64,000 bases of DNA from Candidatus Eiseniibacteriota bacterium (lineage in GTDB: Bacteria > Eisenbacteria > RBG-16-71-46 > CAIMUX01 > VGJL01): the NCBI GenBank assembly GCA_041946735.1, contig JBHGAY010000008.1, positions 32,001 through 96,000 on the forward strand, in the 5' to 3' direction. The notes under the pieces are model-generated. The model searched no databases. It was given only the letters and a program-made list of their open reading frames with translations, and was not told the origin of the DNA. The position numbers and the translations under genes were made by a program. Shown here piece after piece: positions 2,380 to 62,761 of this stretch (position 1 is its first letter; each line of letters begins with the position of its first letter).

Positions 2380-4290
2380 CTACATCCGGTCGGGCGCCTC
2401 GACGGTGAGAATCCCGAGGCCTCGCCGCAGCGCCTGCGCGACGCAGAGCGAGAGCTGCAGGCGGGCAAGCACGGTCGCCTCCTCCGGCGCGTCGAGCACG
2501 CGGTGCGCGTGGTAGAAGCGGGCGTAGGCGCGGGTGAGCTCGAGGAGGTGGTTCGCGACCGGAGCGGCCGAGAGCTGCCTCCAGCCGAGATGGATCATCG
2601 TGGGGAATTCGAGAAGCCGCAGGGCCAGCTCCCGCTCCTCGGGCGAGCCGAGGCGGGCGTAATCGACCCGCTCCGGCCGCACGGCCGCGTAGACCCCGGC
2701 CGGCGCGTCGGTCGCCGGCACGAGGTCCTCCTCGCGGATCGTCCCTCGCTCGAGCCCCTTGCGCACGATGCCGCAGATCCGCGCGTGGCTGTATTGAATC
2801 GCGGGCCCGGTGTCCCCCTCGAACGAGAGCTTCTCCTTCGGATCGAAGACGATGTTCTTCTCGTTGCTCACCTGCAGCAGGTAGACCTTGACCGCTCCCT
2901 GGCCGATCGCCTCCGCCGTCGTCTCGATCCGCTCCGGATCGTCCCCGCAGTACCCGCCCTCGACGATGCGCGCCCGCGCCTCGCCGTGCAGCAGATCGAG
3001 CAGCTCGTCGATGTCGACCGCCGTCCCTTCCCGGGACTTGAGCTTGCCGAGCCCGCCGGGAAGGTTCACCAGGCCGTAGGAGACGTGCTGCAGACCGGAG
3101 GCCCACGGATGCCCGAGCAGCTCGAGGATCGCGAAGAGATTCCTGAAGTGCAGGTCCTGCTCCGAGGCGACGACGTAGAGCGAGCGCGCGGCCGCGTAGT
3201 CGCGCTGCTTCTGCACCGCCGTCCCGATATCCTGGGTGATGTAGACCGCCGTGCCGTCGGATCGCAGGACGAGCTTGTCCTGCAGGCCCTTCGTCTCGAG
3301 CTTCGCCCAGACGGAGCCGTCCTCCTTGCGGTAGAAGACTCCCTTCGCAAGACCGCGCTCCACCTCCGCCTTGCCGACGAGCCAGGTGGCGCTTTCGAAG
3401 TACCAGCGATCGAAGCGGCAGCCGAGCCGCTCGTACGTCTCGCGGAAACCTTCGTAGACCCACTCGTTCATCATCGCCCAGAGCTTGAGGATCTGCGGAT
3501 CGCCGTCCTCCCAGCGGCGCAGGATCGCCTGCGCCTTGCCCATCCATTCGGATACGGCGAGGAAGCGCTCCTCCACCTCCTCGCGCCGCTCGCGATCGAG
3601 CTTCGAGAGGTCGATCCCCTCACGCTCGAGCCACGCCGCCTGCTCCTCCTTCAGGGCGGCATTGAAACGGACGTAGTAGCGTCCGACGAAATGGTCCCCC
3701 TTCTCGCCGGTCTTCGACGGCGTCTCCTCGCCGCCCCACGTCATGTAGGCGAGCATCGACCGGCAGATGTGGATGCCGCGATCGTTCACGAGATTCAGCC
3801 GCACGACCTCGTGCCCCGCCGCTTCCAGCAGGTTGGAGAGGCTCATGCCGATCGCGCTGTTTCGCACGTGCCCGAGATGGAGCGGCTTGTTCGTGTTCGG
3901 GCTCGAATACTCGACGAGCACGCGGGAGCCGGCGCCTGCCGTCAGGCTGCCGAAGGAGGCCCCTTCCTCGGCCGCGCAGCGGCAGACGGCCGCGAGCAGC
4001 GAGTCGGTCCGGAAGCGAAGGTTCACGAAGCCGCCGGCCGGGCGGGCCCATTCGAGGATGAGGCCGGGCGCCATCTCCTTCCCCGGCGCCAGGGCCTCGC
4101 TCCATCGAGCGGCGATCTCCTGGGGGGGCCGGCCGAGCGCGCGCGCGAGCGGGAACGCGGCGATCGCGACGTCCCCCAGATCGAGCGAGGGAGGGCGTGT
4201 GAGGACCGGCTCGAAATCGGCGACCGGCTCCGGAAGCCGGCGGACCAGCTCCTCCTTCAGGGCTTTGAGGATCTCCTCGATGCGGGGCAT
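2380..4290 (-). CDS. argS: Arginine--tRNA ligase
   Basis: VEYSSPNTNKPLHLGHVRN (HIGH motif), NDRGIHIC, LRSDGTAVYITQDIG, KLKSREG, GDTGPAIQYSHAR, C-terminal LGI..PDRM. Confidence 0.97.
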   Translation of the reverse strand: MPRIEEILKALKEELVRRLPEPVADFEPVLTRPPSLDLGDVAIAAFPLARALGRPPQEIAARWSEALAPGKEMAPGLILEWARPAGGFVNLRFRTDSLLAAVCRCAAEEGASFGSLTAGAGSRVLVEYSSPNTNKPLHLGHVRNSAIGMSLSNLLEAAGHEVVRLNLVNDRGIHICRSMLAYMTWGGEETPSKTGEKGDHFVGRYYVRFNAALKEEQAAWLEREGIDLSKLDRERREEVEERFLAVSEWMGKAQAILRRWEDGDPQILKLWAMMNEWVYEGFRETYERLGCRFDRWYFESATWLVGKAEVERGLAKGVFYRKEDGSVWAKLETKGLQDKLVLRSDGTAVYITQDIGTAVQKQRDYAAARSLYVVASEQDLHFRNLFAILELLGHPWASGLQHVSYGLVNLPGGLGKLKSREGTAVDIDELLDLLHGEARARIVEGGYCGDDPERIETTAEAIGQGAVKVYLLQVSNEKNIVFDPKEKLSFEGDTGPAIQYSHARICGIVRKGLERGTIREEDLVPATDAPAGVYAAVRPERVDYARLGSPEERELALRLLEFPTMIHLGWRQLSAAPVANHLLELTRAYARFYHAHRVLDAPEEATVLARLQLSLCVAQALRRGLGILTVEAPDRM

Positions 4291-4336
4291 CTCTTCTCCT
4301 GTCTTCGGGAACGAAGCGGCAACAGCGAGGAACTAT

Positions 4337-4392
4337 AGCATGCGATGCCGGGCGAGCACTCGATGCCGGGCGAGCATGCGATGCCGGGGAGC
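4337..4392. repeat. 18-bp tandem repeat x3
   Basis: agcatgcgatgccgggcg / agcactcgatgccgggcg / agcatgcgatgccgggg in the divergent argS-M16 intergenic region. Confidence 0.8.
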
Positions 4393-4555
4393 GCCCGACA
4401 GGCGATTCGCGGCGCGGCCGGCACGCGCCGCCGTTGTCGAGCCGCCGTCGTCAATTCGATTGCCGCGATCGGGGCGGCTCTGACAACCTGAATGGCGCTT
4501 GCCCGCGGGTGACGATCCTGCGCGAGCGGTATGGGGACGAGAAGAGGAGGGGTCG

Positions 4556-56791: not shown

Positions 56792-59278
56792 TCAGCGCAA
56801 GAGCCGCAGCTTGACGCTCGCCGCCTCGCCGGCGAGTCTGCGCGTCCCGCTCGTCATTCGGGCGAGGTAGACGCCGCTCGGCGCCAGCTCGCCGGTCTCC
56901 ATGCGCCCATCCCACACGGCCTCACCGTTGCCGGAAGCGAGCATGCGCACGATTCTGCCTGCCGGGTCGACGATGGTGATCGTCGCTTCCTCCGTCCCCC
57001 GAGGCATGCGGAAGAGGATCCGCGGGGACGAGCCGGTCGCAGGATTGGGGAACGCGCGGAGCGACGAATCGTCCGAGCCGTTCCATGCCTCCTCGCCGAG
57101 ACCCGCCAGCGGCGGCAGCGCGCTGGTCCATGTCCCCGTGCTGGTGGAGAGGAGCACGCGTGGCTCGGAACCTCCGCTGTGCGCGAGACCGCGCGCGTAA
57201 CCGGAGCTGGCGAGGCCGGCGTTCCATGCCGAGAAGCTCGCTCCTCCGTTCGTCGACAGCATCACCTTCTCCGGGTCGGGCCGCGTGATCCACACGTTGT
57301 TCGCATCGTTCGGATCGCAGAGGACGCTCCAGACCGAGCCGGTGCCCGCGTATCCCGCGCTCGCCCAGCTGACGCCTCCGTTGGTCGTCTTGTACACGCC
57401 TCCGGCCCCGGCCGCATAGTTGCCGTCCGCGTAGTAGAGCGTCTGCGGATCGCCGCGGAGGACTGAAAGGCTCATCCCGCGCGCTCCCGGATGCAGGCCG
57501 GCGCTCGAATCGAACCAGTGAAGACCCCCGTCGGTCGTCCGGAGCGCTCCTCCGGTGTTCTGGCTGAAGTCGGCGAAGGCCGCGACGGCGATCTGGTCGG
57601 TCCCATCGTCGACGCGCTCGATGTCCTCGACAGTCTCCGACTCGATACTCTCGTACGCCTTCTTCCAGTTCGTCCCGCCGTCCGTGGTCAGCCAGACGGT
57701 CGCCTGGAAGCCGGCGACGCCGAAGTCAGCGCCTCCCGCTAGGATCGTGCCGGGCGCCTGGCGGCTGAAGCAGAGGCTCGTGAGGTCGGATTCGTAGAGG
57801 TCCCCCTGGTCGGGGCCGAGGCCCGTCCACGTGCCGTCCGGGTTGCGACGATACAGCCCCTCGGGAGCGACGCTGCTCGGTCCCGAAGAGATCGCGTAGA
57901 GCGTGCCATCGTAGGCGAAGCCCACGTGGCTATAGCGGGTGGGCGGGACCGCCTCGAGCCCCCAGCTCTCCCCGCCGTCGGTCGAGCGATAGACGCCGCC
58001 GTCGTTCTGGCCCTGGTACGCGATTGCGATCTCGAGGGGATCGACGGGGCTCGCGGCGACGGAATAGACATCGAGCGCCATGATCCCGTTCGAGGATGGC
58101 ACGAAGGTCGCGCCTCCATCCTCGCTCTGGTACACACCGAGAGAGCCCAAGCCGAGCAGGATCCGCGAGGCGCTCGCGGGGGCGAACCGAACCGAGCGGA
58201 CCGAGAACGACCCGCTTCCTCCGATCCCGAACGACCAGCTGACCCCGCCGTTCGTCGACCGGAAGACGCCGTCCCCGTCGGTGCCGGCGAGCAGGACGGA
58301 GGAGTTCGTGGGATCGATCTCGATGTCGCGCACGTAGAGGTTCGGCCATCCGCCGGACAGATCCGTCCAGCTCGCGCCGTTGTTCGTCGACGCGTAGAGC
58401 CCGACGTACTGCGATCCGAAGAGCATGCCGCCGCCGACCAGCACGCGGCTGCCGTCATGCACGACGTCCATCATCGGGTTGCCGGGAAGCCCCGCGGAGC
58501 GGTTGACCCAGCTCCCCCCGCCGTTCGTCGTCACCCACACGGCGCCGCCCCCGAAGCTGCCGCCGAAGCAGGCGTAGACCGAGTTGGAGTCGCCGGGGCG
58601 CACCGCGATGGAGCGGCACGCGAGCGGGGACATCGGGGGCGTCATGTTTGCCCAGCTCGTTCCGCCGTTCGTCGAGCGGATGACGTTGATCGGCTGGGCT
58701 CCCATCGCGTCGTCGACACCGGCCCAGATCGTGTTGGAATTGTTCGGATCGATGGTGACCTTGAAAATCACATCGTTCAGTCCGATGCCCAGCGCGAGCT
58801 GCGTCCAGTTCACCCCGGCGTTCGTGCTCTTCCAGATCCCATCGGTCGTCGCGGCGAAGACGGTCCCGGCCGGTGTGAACGCAATGCCATAGACGCTTTT
58901 CCCGGTGAGCGCCGAAACCGGGGACCAGTGGGCGCCGCCGTCGGTCGACCGGAACAGAAGCCCCGTGCCCCCGTCGGGCGCGAGTCCGGCGAGCGCCAGG
59001 TTGGGGTCGACCGGGGAGACGACCGCATCTTCGACGGTCCCCCCGAAGGGTCCGAGGGGGCCCCAGTCGGCCACGGGGGGATCTGTGCGCAGGTCGTCAC
59101 CAGGCAACCCGGGAGCCTCGATCCCGGGAGCGACCGCTTTCGCCCCCGTCCCGTCGATCCGGACCGAAGGATCTGCCGGATCCGGGAAGACGCGCTCGGG
59201 CGCCGGCGAGGCGAGCGAGGTGCTGGCGATCAGCAGGCAGAGGGCGAAGAGGGTGGTGGGAATGGAACGAACCCGCAT
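56792..59278 (-). CDS. Secreted BNR/Asp-box repeat double beta-propeller protein (VPS10/GH74-like) with FlgD/T9SS-like C-terminal domain
   Basis: Signal peptide, WGPLGPFGG, many S/T-x-D/N-G-G-x-x-W Asp boxes, AFPNP..DPAGR..WDGR..SGVY. Confidence 0.88.
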   Translation of the reverse strand: MRVRSIPTTLFALCLLIASTSLASPAPERVFPDPADPSVRIDGTGAKAVAPGIEAPGLPGDDLRTDPPVADWGPLGPFGGTVEDAVVSPVDPNLALAGLAPDGGTGLLFRSTDGGAHWSPVSALTGKSVYGIAFTPAGTVFAATTDGIWKSTNAGVNWTQLALGIGLNDVIFKVTIDPNNSNTIWAGVDDAMGAQPINVIRSTNGGTSWANMTPPMSPLACRSIAVRPGDSNSVYACFGGSFGGGAVWVTTNGGGSWVNRSAGLPGNPMMDVVHDGSRVLVGGGMLFGSQYVGLYASTNNGASWTDLSGGWPNLYVRDIEIDPTNSSVLLAGTDGDGVFRSTNGGVSWSFGIGGSGSFSVRSVRFAPASASRILLGLGSLGVYQSEDGGATFVPSSNGIMALDVYSVAASPVDPLEIAIAYQGQNDGGVYRSTDGGESWGLEAVPPTRYSHVGFAYDGTLYAISSGPSSVAPEGLYRRNPDGTWTGLGPDQGDLYESDLTSLCFSRQAPGTILAGGADFGVAGFQATVWLTTDGGTNWKKAYESIESETVEDIERVDDGTDQIAVAAFADFSQNTGGALRTTDGGLHWFDSSAGLHPGARGMSLSVLRGDPQTLYYADGNYAAGAGGVYKTTNGGVSWASAGYAGTGSVWSVLCDPNDANNVWITRPDPEKVMLSTNGGASFSAWNAGLASSGYARGLAHSGGSEPRVLLSTSTGTWTSALPPLAGLGEEAWNGSDDSSLRAFPNPATGSSPRILFRMPRGTEEATITIVDPAGRIVRMLASGNGEAVWDGRMETGELAPSGVYLARMTSGTRRLAGEAASVKLRLLR

Positions 59279-59452: not shown

Positions 59453-59538
59453 GACCCTCTTGTGGGGTGGCGGCGAGGGGCGTGCGGCCCAGACGTCAGG
59501 CCTCCCTCCTGTCCGCGAAGAATCAAAGAGAGAACCAA

Positions 59539-59790
59539 TTGCGGGACGGCCGGAAAGGACAGCGCGGGGACGACCCGCGCACCTACTACCGAAGCGTCCT
59601 CGCCCTGATGACGATTCCGTTCGTCCTCGGAGTCGCGCCGGTGATCGGCTGGTGGTTCGGGCGATGGGTCGATCGGAAGGCCGGCACGGACTGGGTGTTC
59701 CAGGCGATCGGCGTCGCCCTCGGTCTCGGCGCGGGAGTCCGCGAGACCATTCTCGTCATTCGGAAGGTGCAGCGGGATCTGGATCGCTGA
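59539..59790 (+). CDS. atpZ: AtpZ/AtpI-family (ATPase gene 1) small membrane protein
   Basis: IGWWFGRWVDRKAGTDWVF...GVALGLGAG motif. First gene of the atp operon, probable TTG start. Confidence 0.8.
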   Translation: MRDGRKGQRGDDPRTYYRSVLALMTIPFVLGVAPVIGWWFGRWVDRKAGTDWVFQAIGVALGLGAGVRETILVIRKVQRDLDR

Positions 59791-59799
59791 AGCGCGCAG

Positions 59800-61317
59800 A
59801 TGCGCGGGAGGTCGCTCGGCTTGGTAGGCGAATCGGCGGCGGCACGCGGGCTCGACTTCGGTCCGCGCTTTCTGCGCCGCATCCTCGTCACGACGACCTG
59901 GCTCGGTGGGGTCGTCTTCCTCTGCGTCGCCGTCTACGTGGGTCTTGGCGCGGCCCTCGCCTGGATCGCCGGCGTCGCGCTCGGCCTCGCCGACCTCCAT
60001 CTGCTCGATCGTCTTCTCGCCGAGGCGATGGGGGCGCGTCGAAAGCCCGCGCTCGTCCTCCTGGGCTTCCTCAAGGTGATCGGGATCTACGCCGCCGGCG
60101 CTGTTCTGCTCTTCGTCCTGCGGCTCTCTCCCTGGTATCTGCTCGCCGGCTTCTCCCTCTTTCTCGCCGTGATCTTCCTGAAGGTCCTCGGACGGCTCCT
60201 TCTCTCCTCCTCTCCGATGCGGAAGGACCGAGATGGCCCGGGCGGCCCCTGGCTGCGCCAAGGCCCGGGGCGTGGCCTCCTCCTCGTTCTCGCGTTCGCC
60301 GGCAGCCTCGCTCTCGGGGGAGCGGCGAGTGTCGCGCACGCGCAGGCTTCCACCGAGCACGGAGCCGCGGCGGTCGCGCAGGCTTCCCCCGAGCACGGAG
60401 CCGCGGCGGCCGCGCCACACGAGGCGGTGGCTCCGGACGGCCTGCCGGCGGGGAGCGACGTCGAGGAGGCGGCGGAGGAGACCACCGCGGAGCACGCGGA
60501 GGCGCACGGGGGTGGCGAAGAGGCTGCCCACGAGGGCCCGATGCTCGAGCTCCCCGACCTCTTTCACAATCTGGAGGCGTACTTCGGAGGCACGGGAGAG
60601 CAGCCTGCCGGCATCATCGACTACCTGTTCCTCTGGAGAGGCCCGATCTTCGCGCTGATCATCCTGCTCACCATCGCGACGCTCCTGCTTCGCGGAGCCG
60701 CGCGCCGCGCGATGATCCCCGGCGGCTTCCAGAATGCGGTCGAGTATGTCGTCGAGGCGTTCTACGACTTCACCTACGGGATCCTGGGACACCACGCGAA
60801 GGAGTTCGCGCCGTTCCTCGGGACGCTGTTCCTCTATATCTGGTTCATGAATCTCTCGGGGCTCGTGCCGCTCTTCAAGGCGCCGACCTCCCTCTTCGAG
60901 ACGACCCTCGCGCTCGCGCTGGTCGTCTTCCTGTACGTGCAGTGGACCGGGATCCGCAAGCTCGGCCTGCTCCGCTACCTGCATCACTTCGCCGGTTCGC
61001 CGTCGGACGTGATGGGATGGTGCATGGTCCCGCTGATGTTCCCGCTGCACCTGATCGGCGAAGTCGCGAAGCCGGTCTCCCTCTCGCTTCGACTCTTCGG
61101 CAACATCATGGGAGAGGACGTTCTGATCGCGATCTTCACCTGGCTCGGCGTCGCGATGCTGGCCGCGATCGGGTCTCCGATCGGAATCCCGCTCGAGTTC
61201 CCGTTCATCTTCCTGGGGCTCTTGCTCTCGACGATTCAGGCCCTGGTGTTCACGCTGCTCAGCGCCATCTACTTCTCGCAGATGCTCCCGCACGAAGAGG
61301 AGCATGGGGCTCATTGA
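59800..61317 (+). CDS. atpB: ATP synthase F0 subunit a with an N-terminal AtpI-like domain fused in frame
   Basis: C-terminal half: PGGFQNAVE, FLYIWFMNLSGLVP, KPVSLSLRLFGN (essential Arg), IQALVFTLLSAIY. N-terminal ~135 aa has 4 hydrophobic segments like AtpI. Confidence 0.9.
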   Translation: MRGRSLGLVGESAAARGLDFGPRFLRRILVTTTWLGGVVFLCVAVYVGLGAALAWIAGVALGLADLHLLDRLLAEAMGARRKPALVLLGFLKVIGIYAAGAVLLFVLRLSPWYLLAGFSLFLAVIFLKVLGRLLLSSSPMRKDRDGPGGPWLRQGPGRGLLLVLAFAGSLALGGAASVAHAQASTEHGAAAVAQASPEHGAAAAAPHEAVAPDGLPAGSDVEEAAEETTAEHAEAHGGGEEAAHEGPMLELPDLFHNLEAYFGGTGEQPAGIIDYLFLWRGPIFALIILLTIATLLLRGAARRAMIPGGFQNAVEYVVEAFYDFTYGILGHHAKEFAPFLGTLFLYIWFMNLSGLVPLFKAPTSLFETTLALALVVFLYVQWTGIRKLGLLRYLHHFAGSPSDVMGWCMVPLMFPLHLIGEVAKPVSLSLRLFGNIMGEDVLIAIFTWLGVAMLAAIGSPIGIPLEFPFIFLGLLLSTIQALVFTLLSAIYFSQMLPHEEEHGAH

Positions 61318-61378: not shown

Positions 61379-61609
61379 ATGACCGGTACGCTTCTTCACT
61401 TGGCGCTCCCCCTCGGCCTCGGGATCGCCGCATTCGGATCCGCCATCGGCCTCGGCCGCGCCGTCGGCAGCGCGATGGAGGCGATGGGCCGGCAGCCGGA
61501 AGCTGCCGGGAAGATCCAGGTCGGCATGGTGATCGGTTGCGCCTTCATCGAGGCGCTCACGATCTACGCCCTCGTCACCGTCTTCGTGCTCCAGGGAAGG
61601 CTCGGCTAG
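61379..61609 (+). CDS. atpE: ATP synthase F0 subunit c (H+-type)
   Basis: GxGxxAxG, GRQPEA loop, FIEALTIY. SD AAGGAGGT. Confidence 0.96.
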   Translation: MTGTLLHLALPLGLGIAAFGSAIGLGRAVGSAMEAMGRQPEAAGKIQVGMVIGCAFIEALTIYALVTVFVLQGRLG

Positions 61610-61703: not shown

Positions 61704-62216
61704 ATGGCAGCGGAAGTCAACGTACTGAATCCACACTGGAGCGAGGTCGCGACCCATGCGGTCGCCTTCGCCTTCGCGGTCGCCGTGCTCCGGCGCTACG
61801 CGTGGAAGCCGATCCTGGGGCTTCTCGAGGAGCGCCGCGCGAAGATCGTGTCGGACTTCGATGCGATCGAGAAGGGGAAGACGGCGAACGCGCAGATCCG
61901 CGCCGAGTACGAGCGCGAGCTTAAGACGATCGACCAGCAGGCGCGCGCCAAGATCCAGGAGGCGGTCGGAGAGGGACAGCGGGTCGCGGGCGAGATCCGC
62001 GAGCATGCGCGCCAGGAGTCGCGAGAGCTGATGCAGCGCGCGAAGGAGGAGATCGAGATCGAGAAGGACAAGGCGGAGGTCGCGCTGAAGGAGGACATGG
62101 TTCGCATGTCCCTCACGGCGGCCGAGAAGCTGCTCCGCTCGAAGCTCGACGACGCGACGCACAGGCGCCTGATCTCCGATGCGATCGACGACATGATGAG
62201 GATGCAGCTGACGTGA
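61704..62216 (+). CDS. atpF: ATP synthase F0 subunit b
   Basis: N-terminal TM, YAWKPILGLLEERR, long coiled coil, AAEKLL. Confidence 0.93.
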   Translation: MAAEVNVLNPHWSEVATHAVAFAFAVAVLRRYAWKPILGLLEERRAKIVSDFDAIEKGKTANAQIRAEYERELKTIDQQARAKIQEAVGEGQRVAGEIREHARQESRELMQRAKEEIEIEKDKAEVALKEDMVRMSLTAAEKLLRSKLDDATHRRLISDAIDDMMRMQLT

Positions 62217-62761
62217 TCGACGAGGGCGTCGGAAAGCGTTACGCGCAGGCGCTGTTCGGAGCCGCCGAGAAGGCGGGAGAGCTGGACGCGGTCCAGTCGG
62301 ACTTGGACAGCCTCGAGGCGCTTCTCGAGAAGGATGAGAGTCTCATCCGCTTCCTCGAGTCGCCGCGCGAGCTGGACGAGGAGAAGGTCCATCTCGTCGA
62401 GATGCTCTTCCGCGGCCGCACGACCGGCCTGTTCGTGAGGCTTCTGCTCCTGCTCCTCGAGAAGAAGCGGATCCTCCATCTCCGGGACATTGCGCGGCAG
62501 TACCGTCATCTGCTCGAGGAGCATCGGGGGATCGCCGAGGCGATCGTGACGACCGCTGTTCCGCTGCCGAAGGATCTCGAGCCGCGGCTCGTGCAGGAGC
62601 TGGAACGAATCTTCGAGCGGAAGATCCGCATCCGCCCGCGGATCGATCCGCGGATCATCGGCGGAGTGGTCGTGATGGTCGAGGGCAAGGTCATCGACCG
62701 GTCGGTGCGACACGACATCGACCGGATGCGCGAGGAGCTGCTCGCCACGCCTGTCGTGTAG
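62213..62761 (+). CDS. atpH: ATP synthase F1 subunit delta
   Basis: [33 protein letters not shown]. Confidence 0.95.

Follow-up and report, generated by a model that had tools for sequence, protein, structure and literature searches.

An AtpI-like domain fused to ATP synthase subunit a in Candidatus Eisenbacteria: a possible membrane polyprotein

Of the proteins encoded in the atp operon, AtpI (also UncI or Atp1; PF03899) is understood least; it is dispensable in Escherichia coli. In its stand-alone form, it is a protein of about 120 residues with four membrane helices, encoded in many atp operons after a PF09527 gene and just before the gene for subunit a. Here we describe a locus from an uncultured soil bacterium, Candidatus Eisenbacteria, in which a domain of the same size, helix number and operon place has no stop codon of its own, continues directly into subunit a, and reaches no PF03899 score. 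The fused atpI-atpB open reading frame (ORF) lies at 59800..61317 on the forward strand of the 64,000-nucleotide (nt) stretch of DNA that we analyzed, which is referred to below as the window. An original prediction, made from the sequence, had read this ORF as a possible polyprotein that signal peptidase I may split into AtpI and mature subunit a.

Parallels for a membrane protein of this kind come from other systems. The cytochrome b-c1 precursor FbcH of Bradyrhizobium japonicum reportedly yields two respiratory-chain subunits from one membrane-protein ORF by means of an internal signal sequence that is cut by signal peptidase. FbcH belongs to a different complex, and its processing is said to have been shown experimentally, whereas that of the window protein is inferred. 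In the case of yeast Atp6 (through Atp23) and chloroplast CF0-IV, the subunit a precursor loses an N-terminal piece during assembly, but these presequences are about 10-18 residues long, are not assembly factors, and are removed by other proteases. With respect to AtpI itself, passages of one study give the stand-alone gene order as I - sI - a (PMC4154653), the abstract of a second describes bacterial Atp1/UncI as acting in c-ring assembly (PMC9806626), and a passage of a third implicates atpZ and atpI in Mg2+ import, citing Hicks et al. 2003 (PMC3543383). In our literature search, neither the fusion of AtpI with subunit a nor the Eisenbacteria ATP synthase was the subject of any paper, and a search on fbcH returned nothing relevant. 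The component families are known, and their fusion was not found described in the literature. The fusion is present in public predictions, in which JGI labels the protein P0064 'F-type H+-transporting ATPase subunit a'.

One reading frame for AtpI and subunit a

The ORF list gives a single open frame of 505 codons plus a stop from ATG 59800, and the frame is open as the original prediction had described it; the likelier start, however, is TTG 59821, which would give 498 codons. This TTG lies 9 nt after a Shine-Dalgarno (SD)-like GGGAGG (59806..59811, forward strand) and has a duplex free energy (dG) of -11.0, compared to -3.1 for ATG 59800 and a background in this DNA with a mean of -3.3 and a standard deviation of 2.9. 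Public gene calls start at the TTG, and the 498-residue form is present in the public protein collection, from which the 505-residue form is absent. The G+C content by codon position is coding-like along the whole ORF, at 0.73/0.47/0.84 in the AtpI part and 0.62/0.38/0.89 in the subunit a part.

Subunit a proper extends from a conserved ELPDL motif to a His-rich C end (60550..61314, forward strand; residues 251-505). It matches PF00119 over residues 286-493 (E = 3e-52, 178.1 bits; cut-off, 33.9) and TIGR01131 (129.3 bits; cut-off, 102.6), and it aligns with solved subunit a chains. The essential Arg of LSLRLFGN is residue 431 (nt 61090-61092), and R431, L432, F433, G434, and N435 are invariant in 31 aligned sequences. 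The long-form subunit A model NF009953 (PRK13419) scored 101.3 bits, which is under its 460-bit equivalog score, with an alignment over residues 164-503 that includes the hydrophobic segment and the linker ahead of subunit a. The fused ORF belongs to the only F-type ATP synthase operon of the genome and contains the sole PF00119 match in the assembly, which is 94.8% complete.

The N-terminal domain (59845..60207, forward strand; residues 16-136) is a divergent member of the AtpI family on transitive and profile evidence together with the gene order. Four hydrophobic segments had been predicted in residues 1-135, and AlphaFold2 (AF2) and hydropathy agree on helices at residues 22-46, 49-77, 82-106, and 111-137, with block means of the predicted local distance difference test (pLDDT) of 83-97. 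The proposed AtpI identity is supported through intermediates but not by a direct hidden Markov model match. Although ATP-synt_A was matched with the E value given above, ATP-synt_I (PF03899; cut-off, 25.1 bits) matched neither residues 1-139, residues 16-136, nor the whole protein, even at E values up to 1 or 10, and when the genome was searched in six frames at E <= 10, the only match was at an unrelated place. The domain has no direct Pfam or NCBIfam match, which counts against its assignment to AtpI. It is 29-64% identical to a domain found in every family of the order (21-sequence alignment), and PF03899 matches 17 of these 21 homologues over its full length (profile positions 1-99), 8 of them at E < 1e-3 and 1 above the cut-off (25.4 bits). 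The four homologues without a match are the window and three relatives of the same family. When a profile of the 21 sequences was searched against 1.84 billion representatives, 1177 proteins were found at E <= 1e-3; the best 150 of these included 47 matches to PF03899 (E <= 1e-3), 10 to ATP-synt_A, and 1 to AtpR, with no other family represented. A word-based search with the N-terminal domain found 10 close stand-alone relatives, none with a Pfam match. The profile had no credible match among PDB sequences (best E, 0.063, to presenilin), and the PDB search offered no solved AtpI structure for comparison.

Between the two domains, the predicted order of basic stretch, h-region, AHA, and acidic His-rich linker could be located in full. 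A basic, putatively cytoplasmic tail (60208..60276, forward strand; residues 137-159) contains M140 and has 5 Lys plus Arg and 2 Asp plus Glu in residues 139-159. It is followed by a signal-peptide-like segment (60277..60342, forward strand; residues 160-181), which begins at residue 160, behind four membrane helices, and is not N-terminal. The features of the segment by sequence and hydropathy are a positive n-region (R-K-D-R-D...R...R-G), a 13-residue h-region (LLLVLAFAGSLAL), a GG break, and a c-region, AASVAHA, in which AHA is residues 179-181 and ends at nt 60342, with a candidate signal peptidase I site after it. The linker (60343..60549, forward strand; residues 182-250) is acidic, His-rich, and free of Lys and Arg, and is predicted to be periplasmic and disordered (pLDDT < 50 at residues 186-245); the composition of residues 180-271 is 0 Lys plus Arg, 18 Asp plus Glu, and 8 His. 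A 36-nt tandem duplication (60339..60415, forward strand; 2.1 copies, 95% matches) repeats A-x-A followed by QAS(T/P)EHGAAA and gives a second site, AVA followed by QAS, 12 residues downstream of AHA.

The source genome is a metagenome-assembled genome (MAG), a draft of 72 contigs, and we considered that the long ORF could be an assembly or sequencing artefact, or that its AtpI part could be a decaying, untranslated remnant, a notion with which the missing direct family match would agree. We judge this account to be almost certainly wrong. The likely source run has a 12-kb contig that agrees with the window at every position. A contig that comes from another study (industrial-waste metagenome, X2) spans 59932-60353 with 0 differences and 0 gaps, and a contig from a third study (X3) spans 60288-60438 with 0 differences; thus, the junction has been seen independently, and the missed indel or stop codon that the original prediction had allowed for was not found there. 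Stop codons are absent from all three forward frames from 60182 to 60655, so that a single indel would be unable to restore a nearby atpI stop, and a frameshift artefact was rejected on the basis of these open frames and the agreement of the independent contig. The same architecture is found in 11 sister-family genomes, and 14 of the 15 long frames that were sampled from the rest of the phylum have it as well. Decay is further opposed by the window sharing all 10 invariant columns of the AtpI-domain alignment, by a ratio of nonsynonymous to synonymous substitutions (dN/dS) of 0.24-0.65 for the N-terminal domain against same-family relatives, and by the strong SD sequence of TTG 59821. The raw-read run X8 had no reads on the ORF stretch. 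The fusion of AtpI to subunit a is genuine.

We also considered whether subunit a could be started separately within the fused frame. ATG 60217 (M140) had been described as lacking an SD sequence, and this is the case: it is preceded by CTCCTCCTCTCC, and its duplex dG is +4.3, compared to -12.7 for atpE, -8.6 for atpF, and -6.1 to -12.7 for the other operon genes as a group. It was rejected as the start of subunit a because it has no SD sequence and because its Met belongs to the conserved AtpI tail. There is no in-frame ATG, GTG, or TTG besides 60217 ahead of the h-region. Given that no usable internal start precedes the former signal peptide, subunit a must be made as a fusion. At 10 fused sister-family loci, the dG of the best start candidate before the h-region lies between -3.3 and -6.2, except for one locus that offers no candidate. 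The plausible starts of 16 split genes, each picked by eye, range from -3.4 to -10.0.

The original prediction, which named 60217 as the only nearby internal ATG, overlooked ATG 60541 (M248), which lies just ahead of ELPDL behind a moderate SD-like GAGGG (dG, -6.4) and tells against obligate synthesis of subunit a from the long chain. Initiation there, whether additional or predominant, would give a protein of 258 residues with neither signal peptide nor linker and would leave the long chain mainly for AtpI. The dG is near the values at the split-gene starts, and the subunit a of some relatives has no signal peptide (the Ignavibacteria MAG L042 and G056). We nevertheless consider such a start very unlikely, given that the Met is not conserved (it is L or I in four same-family relatives read at this position), that 17% of the positions in this DNA have a dG of -6 or lower, that the product would be without the His-rich linker, which is conserved across the order, and that translation of AtpI would still continue into subunit a.

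Origin and distribution of the fusion

In all five other genomes of the window's family (G001-G005), atpI and atpB are separate genes with overlapping stop and start codons; the overlap is ATGA in G001, G003, G004, and G005 and TGATG in G002. These split forms share with the window the same AtpI tail, the same signal peptide design (h-region, GG, A-x-A), and the His-rich linker, with an identity to the window of 74-79% in subunit a (tblastn) and of 57-64% (G002, G003, and G005) or 46% (G001) in the AtpI domain. Unlike the window, they have kept the SD sequence, the stop, and the start, which the window has lost by a 3n+2 deletion. AtpI of G005 ends with ...LLRKSPGADRRAR and a stop codon, and subunit a of the split relatives starts with a short signal peptide, e.g., MTRR-ILLLCAVLIAMGF-GG-AFA followed by ESE. 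The AtpI tail of the window is homologous to the C-terminal tail of the stand-alone AtpI in G005, G003, G002, and G004 through ...LRQGPG and then continues in frame with RG-LLLVLAFAGSLAL-GG-AASVAHA followed by QA. At both the DNA and the protein level, this latter part aligns with the signal peptide at the N terminus of subunit a in G005, G004, and G003, and the earlier view of the connecting segment as signal-like is borne out by this homology. In the DNA alignment, the window is without 23 nt (3n+2) exactly at the SD sequence and ATGA of G005.

A tree was built from the AtpI domain and the last 111 residues of subunit a with 23 rows, omitting L026-L028 (truncated) and L010, L013, L014, L016, and L029 (short matches). 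The window is nested inside the split family clade (Shimodaira-Hasegawa-like approximate likelihood ratio test [SH-aLRT] support, 96), and the tree requires at least two changes of state within the order. A single deletion in the window's lineage is the simplest account of the fusion, which formed recently. In the ancestor, atpI and atpB were translationally coupled via the ATGA stop/start overlap. Along with the ribosome-binding site, the 3n+2 deletion (23 nt relative to G005) took out the stop of atpI, the start of atpB, and the greater part of the signal peptide's n-region, and the basic tail of AtpI thereby runs directly into what was the signal peptide of subunit a. Together, the window and the split sister genomes are a natural before/after pair in which the exact mutational step is visible (SD sequence, stop, and start lost at the ATGA overlap), unlike in older fusions.

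Fusion of the two proteins extends beyond the window. Across the order (35 genomes), 12 genomes carry the fused form, namely, the window and 11 of the 13 genomes in sister family f2, and another 21 are split or have AtpI in a short frame (5 in f1, 1 in f4, and 15 in f3); the locus of G015 is in pieces, and G011 has no match. The conservation of the fusion in relatives, which had been named as a check, thus holds for the sister family (11/13) but not for the window's own family (5/5 split). Of the 206 genomes of the phylum, 186 have a match to the AtpI profile, and 97 of the 150 AtpI matches listed sit in open frames of at least 400 codons, with 37 further matches in the phylum beyond those listed. 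Long frames account for 1 of 6 listed matches in f1, 11 of 12 in f2, 1 of 1 in f9, 1 of 5 in f12, 7 of 7 in f15 (one row being the unpublished genome G072, which entered no other part of the analysis), 70 of 77 in f17, and 6 of 6 in f18. Among the 19 regions examined, 14 of the 15 sampled long frames hold AtpI, segment, linker, and subunit a in one frame (the exception is G138). The short-frame regions gave a different picture, in that three of four (G048, G073, and G055) have subunit a in a frame without an AtpI domain and the fourth (G038) is without subunit a; G056 is also split. The fused architecture is common, not rare, in the phylum Eisenbacteria and predominates among the matches listed. 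The premise that atpI and atpB are normally separate genes is accurate for the window's own family (5/5) but does not describe the phylum, in which the fused form predominates among these matches.

The fused proteins of f2, f9, f12, f15, f17, and f18 (e.g., P0013, P0020, and P0154) and of the Planctomycetia MAG L079 are like that of the window in having AtpI, a basic loop, a hydrophobic segment, an acidic/His-rich linker, an ELPN motif, and subunit a. They are unlike it in the length and sequence of the junction; in some, 20-30 extra residues precede the linker, or the segment is longer and resembles an anchor. The fusions of other families are events separate from that of the window, which sits inside a split clade. 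L079 (2959-4023; uncultured) is an AtpI-subunit a fusion outside Eisenbacteria and has a very short hydrophobic connector, MALFLLLSRVAEA followed by SEAAHGG. A word-based search for fused relatives with the first 200 residues of the window protein scored none; it was swamped by low-complexity words and is no evidence of absence.

Several variations were observed around the junction and within subunit a. In a subclade of fused proteins (L008, L014, L020, L009, L016, L030, P0020, and P0053), the 20-30 extra residues follow the hydrophobic segment and precede the His-rich linker; they contain a conserved Trp and acidic residue and end in a conserved small-x-Ala (ALA before Q or E, AVA before Q). 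This end is farther from the membrane than would be expected of a textbook signal peptidase site. Across the order, subunit a carries an N-terminal periplasmic extension that is free of Lys and Arg and rich in His, Asp, and Glu (window, L006, L012, L015, L019, and L022; e.g., HDEHGEHEAHG repeats in G014), as well as a His-rich C end (LPHEEEHGAH), and the extension varies widely in length and sequence. The His/acidic extension and the His-rich C end could bind metal or collect protons. Subunit a is spread over two to four frames in L051 of G004 (3001-4516), in G015 (C6:500057-501296), and in L122 of G138, where G004 consists of 7 contigs and G138 of 1 contig; these could be assembly indel errors or broken genes.

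Processing of the fused chain

Lys and Arg are clustered in residues 1-26 (5), 70-81 (3), and 139-159 (5), and there are none in the 92 residues after the hydrophobic segment. This charge pattern predicts that the N and C ends of the AtpI domain are cytoplasmic and that the N end of subunit a is periplasmic, for which one extra membrane crossing is needed. Such an extra crossing is present in every fusion aligned. AF2 modeling with 31 fused sequences gave a mean pLDDT of 75.6 and a predicted template modeling score (pTM) of 0.57; both membrane domains were modeled confidently, the crossing helix at residues 157-194 was of low confidence, and residues 186-245 were disordered. A structure prediction of the AtpI domain paired with mature subunit a gave no answer (score, 0.00).

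We propose that one chain would be made, probably from TTG 59821, and that the four AtpI helices would enter the membrane so that both termini of this domain stay in the cytoplasm. What was the signal peptide would then form a fifth membrane-crossing segment and carry the linker, together with the N terminus of subunit a, to the periplasm, the side on which this terminus belongs. There, signal peptidase I may cut behind AHA (nt 60342) or behind the duplicated AVA, which lies 12 residues further along. The products would be AtpI plus the signal segment (about 175-190 residues) and a mature subunit a of the same kind as in the split relatives. Synthesis coupled at the 1:1 stoichiometry that the original prediction envisaged, together with co-insertion, may follow from such an arrangement.

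Whether signal peptidase I cuts the fused chain in this window is, in our view, an evenly balanced question. In favor of a cut, the dimensions of the segment are those of a signal peptide (13-residue h-region, GG, and A-x-A), it is a recent descendant of an N-terminal signal peptide, AxA near the h-region is enriched in the split forms (13/17 versus 9.1 expected from shuffles), and the genome has three signal peptidase I genes (PF10502) above the Pfam cut-off. The AxA site had been put forward as evidence of cleavage, and this argument failed: in the Ala-rich stretch of the window, the motif is no better than chance, being present in 0.86 of shuffles of the same 29 residues, and it was dropped as positive evidence. 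Unlike the split forms, the fused homologues show no AxA enrichment, at 15/29 versus 16.0 expected (29 scored of 31, with no junction found in 2), although the sequences are related and the test is crude. Long-standing fusions are thus without a sign of selection for a canonical site. In addition, several f17 fusions have 19-20-residue, Trp-flanked segments that resemble permanent membrane anchors, with a conserved PWRAA motif ahead of them, and cleavage of the split relatives' signal peptides is itself a prediction. These observations, from the chance-level motif onward, all weigh against a cut.

The same observations on AxA enrichment and on the longer Trp-flanked segments behind PWRAA in old fused lineages favor a chain that stays whole. 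In this case, the former signal peptide would remain in the membrane as its fifth helix, and AtpI, still attached to subunit a through the flexible periplasmic linker, would become a stoichiometric appendage of the Fo stator. The topology needs a membrane crossing whether the chain is cut or not, and the long disordered linker would allow a tethered domain to lie beside the complex. Against this stand the short segment of the window (13 hydrophobic residues before GG), which was recently inherited from an N-terminal signal peptide, and the change between fused and split states at least twice in one order, which would be easiest if the mature products were the same. We regard the uncut chain as a serious possibility, while leaning toward its being wrong.

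Taking cleavage together with the recurrence of the fusion, we tentatively propose that Eisenbacteria may make the Fo proton channel by a polyprotein route, in which signal peptidase I would split the chain at a formerly N-terminal signal peptide, and that the recurrent fusion may be Rosetta-stone evidence that the real client of AtpI is not the c-ring alone but subunit a or the interface between a and c. Our confidence in this combined proposal falls somewhat short of even. A conserved, repeatedly arisen fusion suggests that the cell needs AtpI and subunit a together, in location as well as in timing, and it would turn AtpI from a vaguely defined helper into a partner of the proton channel that can be tested. 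A chain that is cut would be a rare bacterial membrane polyprotein and, to our knowledge, the first polyprotein in ATP synthase biogenesis. If the chain is uncut, Fo in this phylum would bear an extra tethered five-helix module.

Neighboring genes and minor observations

The gene order at the locus is a PF09527 gene, the AtpI-like domain, subunit a, subunit c, and subunit b. The first of these is an AtpZ / 'I'-type small membrane-protein gene (PF09527, ATPase_gene1) at 59467..59790 on the forward strand, with a match (E = 2.3e-09, 37.6 bits; cut-off, 26.6) over residues 47-94 of a 107-residue ORF within which the start is uncertain. Downstream of the fused ORF, also on the forward strand, atpE (subunit c; 61379..61609) is the next operon gene and matches PF00137 (E = 2.3e-15) behind its strong SD sequence, and atpF (subunit b; 61704..62216) matches PF00430 (E = 8.3e-22). 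The next ORFs, at 62213..62761 and from 62785 onward, were read as atpH and atpA by position and translation only. Divergently upstream of the atp operon, the reverse strand at 56792-59278 encodes a secreted-looking protein of 828 residues with many 'STDGG..W' / 'TTNGG.SW' repeats and a C-terminal sorting-like domain.

The X2 contig has a loose end at window position 59961 that terminates in CTGTCTCTTATACACAT, which we take to be a transposase adapter. The subunit a record of a close relative, P0162 (public nr, 269 residues), lies at a contig end, and its first residues are RQMCIRDS; this public protein record seems to contain translated adapter sequence.

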